A stretch of 64,000 nt of DNA from Escherichia phage Mt1B1_P17. The notes beneath the pieces were generated by a model. It was not told where the DNA came from. It saw only the letters and a list, made by a program, of their open reading frames with translations, and made no database searches. A program made the position numbers and the translations under genes. The DNA is taken from the sequence record NC_052662.1. One strand, given 5' to 3'. Numbering within the stretch: the stretch's first letter is position 1; each line of letters begins with the position of its first letter. Below are positions 34,226 to 42,253 of this stretch, piece after piece.

Positions 34226-34660
34226 ATGTTACAAGTTCCTGCTAAGTTTGTTGAAGGCGCTATCCACTCTTACCGTCAAACATGTAAGAGGGCAAGAAAC
34301 TGTTTAGATGGTCTGGTGGCAAAAACCTATACTGTTGAAAAGAAGAAACGTTGGTTTGGCAAAGATGTTTATGAAGTTAATATTTTTGGTGAACATAAAC
34401 TAAACCATGACACTCCTGAAAACATGTTAGAAATATTTCTAAGAGATGACAAAATATCTCCTATGGATTACCAACTTTTAAAATTTTATGATTCTTCTTT
34501 GGCTATTGATAAGTTTGTTGAAGATATTCTGTCTAGAAAAACAGATAAAAACACTTATCCTCTAGAAGCTGATCAAATAGGATTATTAAACGAGATTTCA
34601 TCCTTCAAAGAGTTGGATAATATTACAAAAGAGGAGATTTTAGATGGCATTAGATTATGA
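34226..34660 (+). CDS. hypothetical protein
   Basis: 144 aa, RBS AGGAGA. Confidence 0.5.
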   Translation: MLQVPAKFVEGAIHSYRQTCKRARNCLDGLVAKTYTVEKKKRWFGKDVYEVNIFGEHKLNHDTPENMLEIFLRDDKISPMDYQLLKFYDSSLAIDKFVEDILSRKTDKNTYPLEADQIGLLNEISSFKELDNITKEEILDGIRL

Positions 34661-35153
34661 TCGCCCAACGAGCGATTATTATCCGACACCGCAAAAAGCA
34701 ATCAATAGTTTGTTTAGTGTTATAGATTTCAAAAATCTAAAGGAAGAAGGTTGGGTTTTTGCAGAACCTTGCAGAGGTGAAGCTGAAGCGATTTATCGCC
34801 ATTTTCCTGAAGGTTCAGAATATTGCGAACTTGAAGAAGGTAAAGATTATTTTAGTCATGAATGGGAAAATCGTCCCGACATTATAATCACAAATCCTCC
34901 ATTTAAGTTAGCAATGGAGTTCTTGGAAAAGAGCTTAAAAGAGGCGGATGTTTGTATTTATCTTCTTCGGTTGGGCTTCTTGGAGTCAAAGAAACGACGA
35001 GAGTTCCATCAAAAGAATCCACCAACAAACCTTATAGTCCTTTCAGAACGGCCTTCGTTTGTTGCAGGTGGAACAGATAAGACAGCATACGCTTGGTATG
35101 TATACGACCCAAAGAATCGTTTGGGCCTCTCTCAACCATTTTATTTTGTTTAA
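34644..35153 (+). CDS. putative N6-adenine DNA methyltransferase (small)
   Basis: 169 aa; motif IV IIITNPPF; short for a full methyltransferase so the call is tentative. Confidence 0.4.
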   Translation: MALDYDRPTSDYYPTPQKAINSLFSVIDFKNLKEEGWVFAEPCRGEAEAIYRHFPEGSEYCELEEGKDYFSHEWENRPDIIITNPPFKLAMEFLEKSLKEADVCIYLLRLGFLESKKRREFHQKNPPTNLIVLSERPSFVAGGTDKTAYAWYVYDPKNRLGLSQPFYFV

Positions 35154-35165
35154 GGAGTGTGAACT

Positions 35166-35402
35166 ATGGGTAAACTAATTATGACAGTGGCTATTGATTT
35201 TGATGAAGTAGATGAAAGCCTCAACCTTTCACTTTCTACTGACGTAGATGGCGAAATGGATAATATTGAAGCAGCTACTGCTCTTTTCTTCAAAAAAGCC
35301 ATTGAAGTTTATGCCGAACATGCTGCAAATCAGGCAGTAGATTACGGTGGTATCGTGCGAGCTTTAGTTCACTCTACCGAGGGCAATGACTGGGAAGATT
35401 AA
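35166..35402 (+). CDS. hypothetical protein
   Basis: 78 aa. Confidence 0.5.
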   Translation: MGKLIMTVAIDFDEVDESLNLSLSTDVDGEMDNIEAATALFFKKAIEVYAEHAANQAVDYGGIVRALVHSTEGNDWED

Positions 35403-35605
35403 TGGCTTACAATTATTACTGCATTTATGCACATGAAAAGAAAAAAGGTGACACTGGGACTAACGTTTATGCGGAGTCCGAATCTCATGCAAAAGAGATT
35501 GGTGCTATCCTTTTATCACGCTGGACTGGAAATAATTACAGTGCAGAAGATATGTTTGCAGAAGTGGATTCTAGTATCCAAGAAGACAACATAACAACTA
35601 CGTGA
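35402..35605 (+). CDS. hypothetical protein
   Basis: 67 aa, start overlaps upstream stop. Confidence 0.5.
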   Translation: MAYNYYCIYAHEKKKGDTGTNVYAESESHAKEIGAILLSRWTGNNYSAEDMFAEVDSSIQEDNITTT

Positions 35606-35614
35606 TATACTTAT

Positions 35615-35640
35615 ACTCCCTTTTCGGAGGGAGTATTTTA
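35615..35640 (+). terminator. hairpin terminator
   Basis: ACTCCC-TTTTCG-GAGGGAGT followed by ATTTTA. Confidence 0.5.
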
Positions 35641-35650
35641 AGGAGGGATT

Positions 35651-35845
35651 ATGCAGAGCGGAGAAGAACTTTTAGAGAAACAATTCTCAACGCGTCAACA
35701 AGCTTTAAGTTATATGGTTTTTCTAAGCAATCTTGATGTGAATGAGATACTTTTACGGCGCGAAGGTAATTTCTGGAGCGTTAAATATCATGCAACAAGG
35801 TCTGTAATCTACCTGGAAGAGGCGGAATTCTCTTTGGTAGAATGA
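35651..35845 (+). CDS. hypothetical protein
   Basis: 64 aa, RBS AAGGAGGG. Confidence 0.5.
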   Translation: MQSGEELLEKQFSTRQQALSYMVFLSNLDVNEILLRREGNFWSVKYHATRSVIYLEEAEFSLVE

Positions 35846-39866: not shown

Positions 39867-39875
39867 GGAGAGATT

Positions 39876-40148
39876 GTGGAGTCTGAAGGCGAACTGCTGA
39901 TAAAAAAGAAAGTTAAAGAGATGGAACAAGCACAAAGAAAGTTCCGTAAGGAGATTGAAGAACTTTGTGAACAGTTTCAGGAACAAGCTTGGATAGGTGA
40001 CTACGGTAACGGAGAAACTTATTACCCTACAGGAACGCCAGCCGCAGATCACTATATTGATTTCATTTGTGAAGATTATGGTGTAGAGTTGGATGAAAAT
40101 GGTTTAACCACAAGAGGTGTTTGGATCTCTTCTTCCTCAATGTGTTAG
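39876..40148 (+). CDS. small protein, C-terminal W-x-SS-x-C family, member 3
   Basis: 90 aa, ends ...RGVWISSSSMC. Confidence 0.5.
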   Translation: MESEGELLIKKKVKEMEQAQRKFRKEIEELCEQFQEQAWIGDYGNGETYYPTGTPAADHYIDFICEDYGVELDENGLTTRGVWISSSSMC

Positions 40149-40156
40149 TAAATAAT

Positions 40157-40180
40157 AACCCGCTTCGGCGGGTTTTTTAT
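40157..40180 (+). terminator. Rho-independent terminator
   Basis: AACCCGC-TTCG-GCGGGTT followed by TTTTTAT. Confidence 0.7.
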
Positions 40181-40238
40181 TGACAGGAATCTGGAAGCTT
40201 GATAAACTTAACCTATCAACCAATAGAGGAGAAATATT

Positions 40239-41180
40239 ATGGTGTTAATTGGTAGCCGTGCATTGCAAATTCATGCTATGGACATGGGAAAAGACTTGTA
40301 TCGCCCTTGTGTAGATTTAGATTACCTGTGTACAGAACAAGAGTGGGAAGAATTATCAAAAATGTTCTCTCAAGAGGAGTTTGTTGAACTTGTAGAACGT
40401 AAAGGAAACAAAGGCCATGTCAAAATGATAGCTGGTGCACATTTGGAATACGATATTGCTTCTCAAGGAGATAGCACAGAAGCTTTGATTAGTTATTGTG
40501 AAGATTCTGATGATGTTCGTCGAACTTACGCTGGACATGTTGTTGCTCCTTTAGATGTGCTCTACCTTCTTAAAATGAGTCATCGTTTTAAAAAGGATAG
40601 TCCTCACTTCTTTAAAACTATGAAAGATATTCATTTCATGCGGTCACTGGGCGCAAAGATCCCAGAAAATCTTAAGAGTATTTATGAGTTGCGTGAGAAA
40701 GAAACATACACTTACTCTCATCCGAACTTAAACGTAAAAAGTAAAGACTTTTTTAAAGGTGATGAGGTTCCGTATGTTTATGATCATGATTCTATCCATG
40801 AAGCAATCGCGGTAATGGATGCTCCGGCATATAAATCTTATATGAAAGATGGAAGTGAAGTTATGACCAGCAAAGAAAAGTTTTTTGCTCAACCAAAACA
40901 TGTGCGCCTGTTAGGTGTTTATGAAGAAGCGTGTGTTTTGGCTTTGGAACGTTCACAAATTCCTTTCGGTGGAGAGATCGGAGGTCCAACCCCTAAGCAA
41001 AGTTTTATAATGGCTTTATCTAAAGTCTGCACATCCATCACTAGTGGTTGGTTTAGGGAATATGCTTGGGAAAACTTTTATGTTGTTATTAAGCTATATG
41101 AAAACATGGGCGAAAACGACTATGTTGAACGTTTTAAAGCTAATCAACATGTAGTAAAGCCTTTTGAAGGAGGTTATTAA
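40239..41180 (+). CDS. hypothetical protein
   Basis: 313 aa, RBS AGAGGAGA. Confidence 0.55.
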   Translation: MVLIGSRALQIHAMDMGKDLYRPCVDLDYLCTEQEWEELSKMFSQEEFVELVERKGNKGHVKMIAGAHLEYDIASQGDSTEALISYCEDSDDVRRTYAGHVVAPLDVLYLLKMSHRFKKDSPHFFKTMKDIHFMRSLGAKIPENLKSIYELREKETYTYSHPNLNVKSKDFFKGDEVPYVYDHDSIHEAIAVMDAPAYKSYMKDGSEVMTSKEKFFAQPKHVRLLGVYEEACVLALERSQIPFGGEIGGPTPKQSFIMALSKVCTSITSGWFREYAWENFYVVIKLYENMGENDYVERFKANQHVVKPFEGGY

Positions 41181-41577
41181 TATGTGTGGATATCTTTCAG
41201 AAAGTTATTTCAAAGTGACGCATGAGGATTTAGAAAAAGCACGATTGAAACTGACAGCTATTATTGAATACTCTAATACTGTTGATCACAGATTAAAGAC
41301 TACTAAAGTATCTGTTCCTTGTTGGTTAGGTTTACGGCATAAAATAATGTCTCAACATGACCATGTTGTTCGAGAGATGCATGGTTGGTGTTGGTTTCAC
41401 GATGTGGCTCTGCATTTTGGTTATATTACAGAAGAAGAGCATAGATTCTGTGAACTAACATATCGTATTCCAACCCTTCACGATTTAGATTTGTGGAAGA
41501 AAGCAAACGAGATTTTTCTTACAGAAAGTGATTGGCGTAAAGTTATGGCTTGTCTTGAATGGAGGGGTAATGAGTAA
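41164..41577 (+). CDS. hypothetical protein
   Basis: 137 aa. Confidence 0.5.
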   Translation: MKEVINMCGYLSESYFKVTHEDLEKARLKLTAIIEYSNTVDHRLKTTKVSVPCWLGLRHKIMSQHDHVVREMHGWCWFHDVALHFGYITEEEHRFCELTYRIPTLHDLDLWKKANEIFLTESDWRKVMACLEWRGNE

Positions 41578-42253
41578 AACAGTTTTGTCTATGTTTGACG
41601 GATCTGGAATCATGGTGTTACGTTATGCCGAAGCAGGTCACAAGTGTTTTTGTGTAAACGCTGATGAAGGGGATCACGGTAAATACGAGGTTAGGATGGA
41701 GCACCCAAACATAACCTATGTGAATGCCTGGATAGATTCTACATTCAACCCTGAAGATCATGGGATACCTAAACCCGATATTATTTTTGGATTTCCACCT
41801 TGCACTATGTTAGCAGGTAGTGGTAGCAAACACGAACGCAGCACAGAGGAATTGGATGAAGCTTTAGCTAATATTCGTGTAGTGGAAGCTTTGGGTAACA
41901 AATATAATGTTCCTTGGATGATTGAGAACCCAGTAGGTAAACTTTCAACCTTATGGCGTAAACCCGATTTTTACTTTGATCCTTATGAGTATGGTGGGTA
42001 TTTGTTTGAAGAGGAAGGAAGCTTTCATCCTAAAATGCCTACCCGTGATGGGTATACAAAGAAAACTTGTATTTGGCACGGCAATGGTTTTGTTCAACCA
42101 GTGAAGAAACCAGTAGATCATATAGGCTGCTTCTGGGGTTGGAAAAGCTTAGGTGGAGCTAGTGCAAAAACAAAACAACTTAGATCACTAACCGCACGTG
42201 GTTTTGCTCGTGCAGTGTTTTTGTCTAACAATCTTCTAGATAAGGAGAAATAA
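41570..42253 (+). CDS. putative C5-cytosine DNA methyltransferase-like protein (short)
   Basis: internal ATG after GGAGGGG; motif I-like FDGSG, PC motif FGFPPC, ENV motif WMIENPVG; lacks an obvious target-recognition region. Confidence 0.4.
   Translation: MSKTVLSMFDGSGIMVLRYAEAGHKCFCVNADEGDHGKYEVRMEHPNITYVNAWIDSTFNPEDHGIPKPDIIFGFPPCTMLAGSGSKHERSTEELDEALANIRVVEALGNKYNVPWMIENPVGKLSTLWRKPDFYFDPYEYGGYLFEEEGSFHPKMPTRDGYTKKTCIWHGNGFVQPVKKPVDHIGCFWGWKSLGGASAKTKQLRSLTARGFARAVFLSNNLLDKEK

Follow-up and report, generated by a model that had tools for sequence, protein, structure and literature searches.

Two short genes in a 64,000-nucleotide stretch of DNA from Escherichia phage Mt1B1_P17 (sequence record NC_052662.1; this whole stretch is the window below, and positions count from its first letter) very likely encode enzymes with DNA methyltransferase activity, one of the N6-adenine and the other of the C5-cytosine type. 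The fold, the motifs, the family membership and the homology to characterised enzymes were observed for both proteins; from those relatives we infer the activity of the exact proteins, their target sites and any benefit to the phage. We consider that each is probably an orphan DNA methyltransferase that acts independently as a single polypeptide and stems from a compact phage-specific family, with GATC the likely target of the N6-adenine enzyme and a CCWGG-like site that of the C5-cytosine enzyme.

An earlier note on this DNA, made from the sequence alone, had placed two methyltransferase-like open reading frames (ORFs) at 34644..35153 and 41570..42253. Both are present there on the + strand, each behind a good Shine-Dalgarno sequence (AGGAG, 7 nt upstream of the ATG at 34644; GGAGG before the ATG at 41570) and with the same start codon as in public annotations of near-identical genomes. 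At 99.6% identity over its full length, the region 34000-43000 matches numerous phages of Escherichia that belong to Phapecoctavirus, a genus of phAPEC8-like 150-kb myoviruses in the Stephanstirmvirinae, and each of the two genes is kept at ≥99% identity in 63 Phapecoctavirus genomes. Public genomes hold 100%-identical copies of both proteins, and the two genes carry public labels such as “DNA methyltransferase”, “putative DNA methyltransferase”, “DNA N-6-adenine methyltransferase” and “Dcm”. The genes are two separate features rather than a single locus: 6.4 kb separates them, and a consensus scan, with hairpin terminators as bounds, assigns them to distinct putative transcription units. A near-identical genome has neither a restriction endonuclease nor a third methyltransferase annotated in its corresponding 62 kb, so that both genes are orphans and the earlier remark that a cognate restriction enzyme is missing holds over that region. 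Literature statements on Phapecoctavirus or PVP-SE1-like phages were found at the level of annotation only, with no methylome or restriction data specific to these groups.

The features of the N6-adenine gene are as follows.

34644..35153, + strand: gene for the predicted 169-amino-acid (aa) compact N6-adenine DNA methyltransferase, with a gamma-type motif order and without a separate target-recognition domain
34680..34691, + strand: YPTP codons (aa 13-16), a conserved N-terminal motif; T15 invariant, Y13 and P16 ≥90% conserved in 57 homologues
34764..34781, + strand: EPCRGE codons (aa 41-46), a motif I-like, putative S-adenosylmethionine (AdoMet)-binding loop of the ExxxGxG type
34893..34904, + strand: NPPF codons (aa 84-87), catalytic motif IV; N84, P85 and P86 invariant in 57 homologues

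The invariance of N84, P85 and P86 across the 57 homologues indicates that the NPPF motif is not there by chance. In the same set there is no variation at E41, P42 or C43, G45 is ≥90% conserved, and by analogy with gamma-class enzymes such as M.TaqI the EPCRGE stretch would form the AdoMet-binding loop; D68, D79 and T83 are each ≥90% conserved. The protein belongs to phrog_799 (“DNA methyltransferase”; E 2.8e-59), a family recorded in 542 phage records and with a median length of 169.5 aa among the 120 homologues listed. In Pfam and NCBIfam scans of both methyltransferases and their neighbours, neither methyltransferase rose above threshold, and both families are visible in PHROGs only; the sole Pfam match of the N6-adenine protein is a sub-threshold one to EcoRI_methylase (E 0.02; 14.7 bits vs. 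a cut-off of 26.4). Sequence and profile searches against PDB gave weak matches only, among them Erm/DpnA at E ~0.03, so that a fold comparison was required. The AlphaFold models of both proteins are confident and compact (pLDDT 90.3 and 92.6); the N6-adenine model fits an N6-adenine methyltransferase core and the C5-cytosine model a C5-cytosine core. Gamma-class N6-adenine enzymes (M.TaqI, MmeI, M.BseCI, CamA, type I HsdM) carry a large C-terminal recognition domain or use a separate HsdS, whereas the chain modelled here stops directly after the Rossmann core. Five aligned homologues of the family contain a Cys-rich insertion of ~30 residues (CxxC...CxC, zinc-ribbon-like) in the hairpin that corresponds to aa 133-148 of the window protein, and this insertion may be a DNA-recognition add-on.

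Other placements of this protein were rejected. Alpha-class Dam and the T1/HP1-type phage Dam (PF05869) do not fit a protein that has no Pfam match above threshold and reads NPPF rather than DPPY. The upstream ORF 34226-34660, which overlaps the start of the N6-adenine gene, was discarded as a partner subunit: its family occurs in 131 records vs. 542 for the methyltransferase, and it is not found beside the rV5 and PVP-SE1 homologues.

The closest characterised relative comes from phage Bas51. Escape of this phage from retrons Asa1 and Squ1 maps to an “N6 adenine methyltransferase” through the substitutions D69G, D79G and T83P, as reported in a 2025 PLoS Biology paper (PMC12548924). Native nanopore sequencing of Bas51 finds N6-methyladenine (6mA) at a GATC motif, nearly gone in the T83P mutant, and the enzyme is toxic if expressed alone (PMC12548924). 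Bas51 is phage WalterGehring (Vequintavirus, rV5-like), in which two N6-adenine methyltransferases are annotated; we assign the retron trigger to the 177-aa bas51_0176 because it is the sole candidate with D69, D79 and T83, the last followed directly by NPPY. The second enzyme (272 aa, bas51_0200) has Q, A and I at residues 69, 79 and 83 and was rejected as the trigger. The window protein shares 48% identity (E 4e-47) with the bas51_0176 / rV5 gp118 family, an alignment made with the rV5_ev168 protein, from which bas51_0176 differs at one residue. The three loss-of-function positions of Bas51 align to D68, D79 and T83 of the window protein, which places it in the same family. Both proteins are compact (177 vs. 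169 aa), share the motif order YxTP ... EPCR ... D ... D-x-I-I-T-NPP[FY], and are encoded in the same neighbourhood of PhoH, protease and then methyltransferase. They differ in motif IV, which is NPPY in Bas51 and NPPF in the window, and at 52% of residues; owing to this divergence GATC specificity, retron triggering and toxicity are putative for the window protein. The same retron study also measured 6mA at GTAC (PMC12548924), and GTAC may be the site of bas51_0200, an NPPF-type protein encoded at 34070-34888 of the WalterGehring DNA. A bas51_0200 homologue was not found in the window, where GTAC is strongly avoided.

The C5-cytosine gene carries the following features.

41570..42253, + strand: gene for the predicted 227-aa compact C5-cytosine DNA methyltransferase (short “Dcm-like” family)
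41594..41608, + strand: FDGSG codons (aa 9-13), motif I, alignable to its counterparts in M.HaeIII and in a canonical PF00145 Dcm
41795..41803, + strand: PPC codons (aa 76-78), motif IV with catalytic C78, invariant in 65 homologues
41924..41932, + strand: ENP codons (aa 119-121), equivalent of motif VI (ENV); E119 and P121 invariant, N120 ≥90% conserved in 65 homologues
42059..42208, + strand: codons for KKTC (aa 164-167), which resembles motif VIII, then a stretch that varies, then RSLTARGFA (aa 205-213), which resembles motif IX/X

The motifs read by the earlier note stood in the main, i.e., NPPF, FDGSG and PC (as PPC) are present, but its “ENV” is ENP. Motifs I, IV and VI follow one another in order on a Rossmann fold, and the invariance of C78, E119 and P121 across 65 homologues speaks against a chance resemblance. 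Toward the C-terminus K164 is ≥90% conserved and W169 and R205 are invariant, with a stretch between them that varies in both length and sequence. We suggest that this variable stretch of ~25-30 residues (about aa 172-198) serves as a mini target-recognition segment: in the model, only about 25-30 residues lead from the strand at 166-171 to the helix at 199-206, the place where canonical enzymes carry their recognition domain. Motifs VIII and IX do not enclose a large recognition domain (about 80+ aa) in this protein.

By family, the protein belongs to phrog_757 (“DNA methyltransferase”; E 1.8e-84 over aa 1-225), recorded in 1486 phage records that include Drexlerviridae, Webervirus, Vequintavirus, Krischvirus and others. 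The 120 close homologues listed have a median length of 224 aa (range 210-267), and 150 of the 965 representatives at 50% identity with E ≤ 1e-3 have a median of 226 aa. The protein matched no Pfam family at E ≤ 0.1 and thus not PF00145, for which a precomputed match exists in 1 of the 120 listed homologues. PDB sequence and profile searches returned M.HaeIII at E 0.02-0.08, a weak match over motifs I-IV only, and when the profile of the short Dcm family was compared to that of a canonical Dcm, only motifs I-VI, i.e., the N-terminal half, aligned, leaving the C-terminal half unmapped by sequence. Compared to canonical C5-cytosine enzymes (PF00145: M.HhaI, M.HaeIII, E. coli Dcm and the 329-aa Dcm of phage EmilieFrey), the window protein shares motifs I, IV and VI but is ~100 residues shorter, lacks the large recognition domain between VIII and IX, and has ENP for ENV and K-K-T for QxRxR. 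Sequence identity to the catalytic domains of DNMT3A and DNMT3B is 16-17%; DNMT3 enzymes function as oligomers and carry regulatory domains. The short lengths singled out by the earlier note (169 and 227 aa) are real yet equal the norm of both families, the absence of a large canonical target-recognition domain is likewise a family trait, and the two chemical types that it had proposed agree with the PHROG matches, the folds and the characterised homologues.

In this second family the characterised member is a 711-bp “Dcm-like C5 cytosine methyltransferase” of the Drexlerviridae phage K42, which triggers retron Ec86; K42 is 95% identical to KarlJaspers/Bas06 (bioRxiv 10.1101/2023.08.16.553469). 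LC-MS (liquid chromatography coupled to mass spectrometry) found high 5-methylcytosine (5mC) on multicopy single-stranded DNA (msDNA) with the wild-type K42 Dcm, and not with a C82A/E128A/K175A/K176A mutant, in experiments conducted in MG1655 (10.1101/2023.08.16.553469). The window protein aligns to the product of the KarlJaspers 711-bp gene over aa 5-220 (50% identity, E 1e-71), and K42 residues C82, E128, K175 and K176 fall on C78, E119, K164 and K165, which makes the two members of one family. At 236 vs. 227 aa the proteins are of similar length, and they have in common the catalytic Cys, the Glu of ENP and the KK pair; the K42/KarlJaspers enzyme, which belongs to PHROG 757 and is the trigger of retron Ec86/Eco1, is carried by a 51-kb siphovirus and the window enzyme by a 150-kb myovirus. 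Between motif VIII and the C-terminal helix, the variable segment reads PVDHIGCFWGWKSLGG in the window and LPKEDDKDNPGWAKTGG in K42/KarlJaspers, so the target site of the window enzyme may differ from that of K42.

From these relatives we propose how the two enzymes would work. Both would be expressed from an early/middle block of + strand genes, with replicating phage DNA as their substrate. With AdoMet, the 169-aa enzyme would form N6-methyladenine, most likely at GATC to judge from the Bas51 homologue at 48% identity, and the 227-aa enzyme would use the C78 thiol of PPC to form 5-methylcytosine, probably at a CCWGG-like site to judge from the K42 homologue at 50% identity. Sequence recognition would be achieved by short loops, i.e., the hairpin at aa 133-148 in the N6-adenine enzyme and the segment at aa 172-198 in the C5-cytosine enzyme, with no separate domain or subunit and possibly with a contribution from oligomerisation. 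The likely benefit would be a Dam/Dcm-like methylation state that is independent of the host: it would shield phage DNA from restriction enzymes cutting at GATC or CCWGG and offset a lag of host Dam and Dcm behind fast replication, at the cost that some retrons sense such methylation.

Several points weigh against this proposal. For these exact proteins activity is argued from homologues, and target specificity can change at 48-50% identity; the predicted recognition segment of the C5-cytosine enzyme is unlike that of K42. Both proteins stay below every Pfam and NCBIfam threshold, and the high restriction sensitivity of relatives leaves the protective benefit putative. MG1655 is generally dcm+. 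Even so, msDNA from MG1655 with an empty vector was low in 5mC, and the CCWGG site of K42 Dcm was taken over from E. coli Dcm, backed by msDNA mutants only (10.1101/2023.08.16.553469). The toxicity of the Bas51 enzyme when expressed alone hints at an activity beyond GATC. This toxicity, together with the low 5mC on MG1655 msDNA when the phage enzyme is missing, gives room for a non-host-type target. We only tentatively entertain, as a rather unlikely extension, that these ~170-aa and ~225-aa enzymes are among the smallest sequence-specific DNA methyltransferases, that they read a 4-5 bp site, possibly in dimeric form, with only a ~15-30-residue hairpin or loop, and that their specificities could differ from those of Bas51 (GATC) and K42 (assumed CCWGG).

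The small size of the C5-cytosine protein could also mean that it is half of an enzyme, and the earlier note had raised the idea that it works with the ORF directly downstream. The elements concerned are these.

40157..40208, + strand: terminator-like hairpin (40157-40174), then promoter-like TTGACA-17-TAAACT (40180-40208), both from a consensus scan; putative cassette start
42253..42906, + strand: 217-aa ORF, phrog_8514, with an ATGA start/stop overlap with the methyltransferase gene and its own AAGGAG ribosome-binding site
42922..42946, + strand: terminator-like hairpin with an 11 bp stem and a T run, from a consensus scan; putative cassette end

Between the two terminator-like hairpins the C5-cytosine gene sits in a compact four-gene cassette (40157-42946), in the order DUF7277+DUF7275 protein (40239-41180; Pfam E 7.5e-76), phrog_16551 (41164-41577), methyltransferase and phrog_8514 (42253-42906); the same gene order is found in Klebsiella phage KP2025. 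The 217-aa ORF has no Pfam or NCBIfam match, phrog_8514 being its sole family match.

Under the split-enzyme explanation, the 227-aa protein would be a catalytic subunit that needs the 217-aa ORF for target recognition, in the manner of M.AquI and M.EcoHK31I, which are two-polypeptide C5-cytosine methyltransferases. The tiny recognition segment would fit such a scheme, as would the ATGA overlap within a single putative transcription unit, the retention of the pair in Phapecoctavirus and in Klebsiella phage KP2025, and the presence of an ORF homologue behind a canonical Dcm in Justusliebigvirus. Yet the numbers and the motifs make it very unlikely. The short Dcm family is found in 1486 phage records and the ORF family, ~10 times rarer, in 148, i.e., more than 1300 phages have the short Dcm without the ORF; K42 is one that lacks it, and there the single gene is enough for 5mC in E. 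coli. None of the 16 protein clusters of the ORF family is fused to a methyltransferase domain, and no methyltransferase gene adjoins the homologues of Vibrio phage MAR and Pseudomonas phage PAKlein3. ATGA overlaps are frequent in the surrounding gene block, and catalytic motifs I to X all lie within the 227-aa protein rather than being divided between two chains. In EmilieFrey (Justusliebigvirus, the sister genus) the ORF homologue adjoins a 329-aa Dcm that is complete by itself and requires no partner. The flanking genes are syntenic too, so the adjacency is best explained as inherited synteny, and the 217-aa ORF is probably co-transcribed with the C5-cytosine methyltransferase but not part of the enzyme. 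The EmilieFrey Dcm, a canonical PF00145 member at 7894-8883 of the EmilieFrey DNA, occupies the syntenic slot with both flanking neighbours homologous, and its identity to the window protein is no more than 26%, over the N-terminal 125 residues. Given this non-orthologous replacement, C5-cytosine methylation would be what is kept at the slot, which suggests that the methylation itself is the selected function.

Over the whole window (1-64000), with counts on both strands and a maximal-order Markov expectation, several palindromes were strongly under-represented: GTAC (118 observed vs. 359 expected, ratio 0.33), CCGG (30 vs. 102, 0.30) and GGCC (48 vs. 122, 0.39), with CTGCAG at 0 vs. 26 expected and GGATCC at 0 vs. 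18.6 expected. GATC (observed/expected 0.95) and CCWGG (0.80) were near expectation, i.e., without strong avoidance, and GATATC and AGACC were at expectation. This suggests that the phage counters several type II enzymes by site avoidance rather than methylation. The avoided sites, together with GATC and CCWGG near expectation, argue for narrow Dam- and Dcm-like specificities and not for indiscriminate methylation.

The latter would be the case if one or both enzymes modified A or C in most contexts, in the style of Hia5 or M.EcoGII, and so gave broad protection from restriction. The two proteins lack a canonical recognition domain, the Bas51 homologue is toxic on expression, and non-specific phage-borne adenine methyltransferases are known (PMC3299994), all of which would be in line with low specificity. 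We nevertheless judge it improbable. Bas51 virion 6mA shows a distinct GATC logo, and the strong avoidance of CCGG, GGCC, GTAC, CTGCAG and GGATCC in the window would be pointless were such sites methylated. Adenine methylation blocks EcoRI and EcoRV as well as systems of types I and III. The carriers of the N6-adenine gene, Vequintavirinae and phi92-like phages, were nonetheless “exceptionally susceptible” in the BASEL study to six restriction-modification systems of types I, II and III, EcoRI and EcoRV among them (PMC8594841). The small N6-adenine gene occurs in both groups, accompanied by a short Dcm in Vequintavirus and by a canonical Dcm in the phi92-like EmilieFrey. Phages near-identical to the one analysed here have MG1655 as their isolation host; taking this strain as McrBC+ wild-type K-12, dense 5mC would presumably be restricted there by McrBC, which argues against such methylation. 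Hia5 itself is of another class, an alpha-class enzyme of about 280 aa (281 aa) whose DPPY lies at or near residue 194 and whose internal recognition region is divergent (PMC3299994). With 169 aa, NPPF at residue 84 and motif I ahead of motif IV, the window protein is no member of Hia5/Hin1523, and a Hia5-like non-specific methyltransferase was ruled out by class, size and motif. The protection from restriction proposed by the earlier note thus finds weak support: it is plausible against GATC- or CCWGG-type enzymes, but broad protection is unlikely in view of the sensitive relatives and the avoidance of CCGG, GGCC and GTAC. The phenotype documented for both families, in their characterised members, is rather a liability, in that retrons sense the methyltransferase activity.

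Two further explanations question whether DNA is methylated at all. The NPPF protein might be an rRNA or tRNA m6A methyltransferase like METTL5/PH1948, matching the phage tRNA cluster, and the phage does encode ~10 tRNAs as well as tRNA-related genes. The DNA methyltransferases MmeI, M.TaqI, BseCI, CamA and HsdM, however, are equal in fold score, and the 48%-identical Bas51 enzyme accounts for GATC 6mA in phage DNA, so we give an RNA substrate very little credence. It is just as doubtful that the two genes are inactive relics, i.e., degenerate remnants of methyltransferases that have lost their recognition domains. The proteins are short, have no Pfam or NCBIfam matches and match solved structures only weakly by sequence, as relics might; but full-length homologues exist in hundreds with invariant catalytic residues, the 63 Phapecoctavirus genomes retain both genes nearly unchanged, the models are confident and compact, and homologues of the same length are active.

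Elsewhere in the window, neighbouring genes encode an HslV/proteasome-like peptidase (33488-34180), a DprA-like protein (37804-38409) and a Sir2-family protein (43435-44250; Pfam SIR2 E 1.9e-22), all three conserved throughout Stephanstirmvirinae and Vequintavirinae. A segment of ~1.9 kb present in phage Ro121c4YLVW (27734-29822 in the coordinates of that relative) is missing from the window at 29610-29822; it holds an RmlB-like “nucleotide-sugar epimerase” gene and an adjacent gene. The RmlC- and RmlD-like genes (29831-31233) are retained, which leaves the dTDP-rhamnose pathway incomplete in the window.

Overall, these are real, ordinary and already known methyltransferase genes, and nothing in them is new. 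As a discovery they are minor, since annotations of identical proteins as methyltransferases already exist for dozens of Phapecoctavirus genomes and characterised members are known in both families. Their compactness makes both enzymes potential minimal scaffolds for studies of how methyltransferases recognise DNA. Phages of the Phapecoctavirus type find use in cocktails for biocontrol and therapy, and from the two genes one would predict for them a virion methylome of Dam/Dcm-like character and a likely sensitivity to methylation-sensing retrons of the Eco1/Ec86 and Asa1/Squ1 types.

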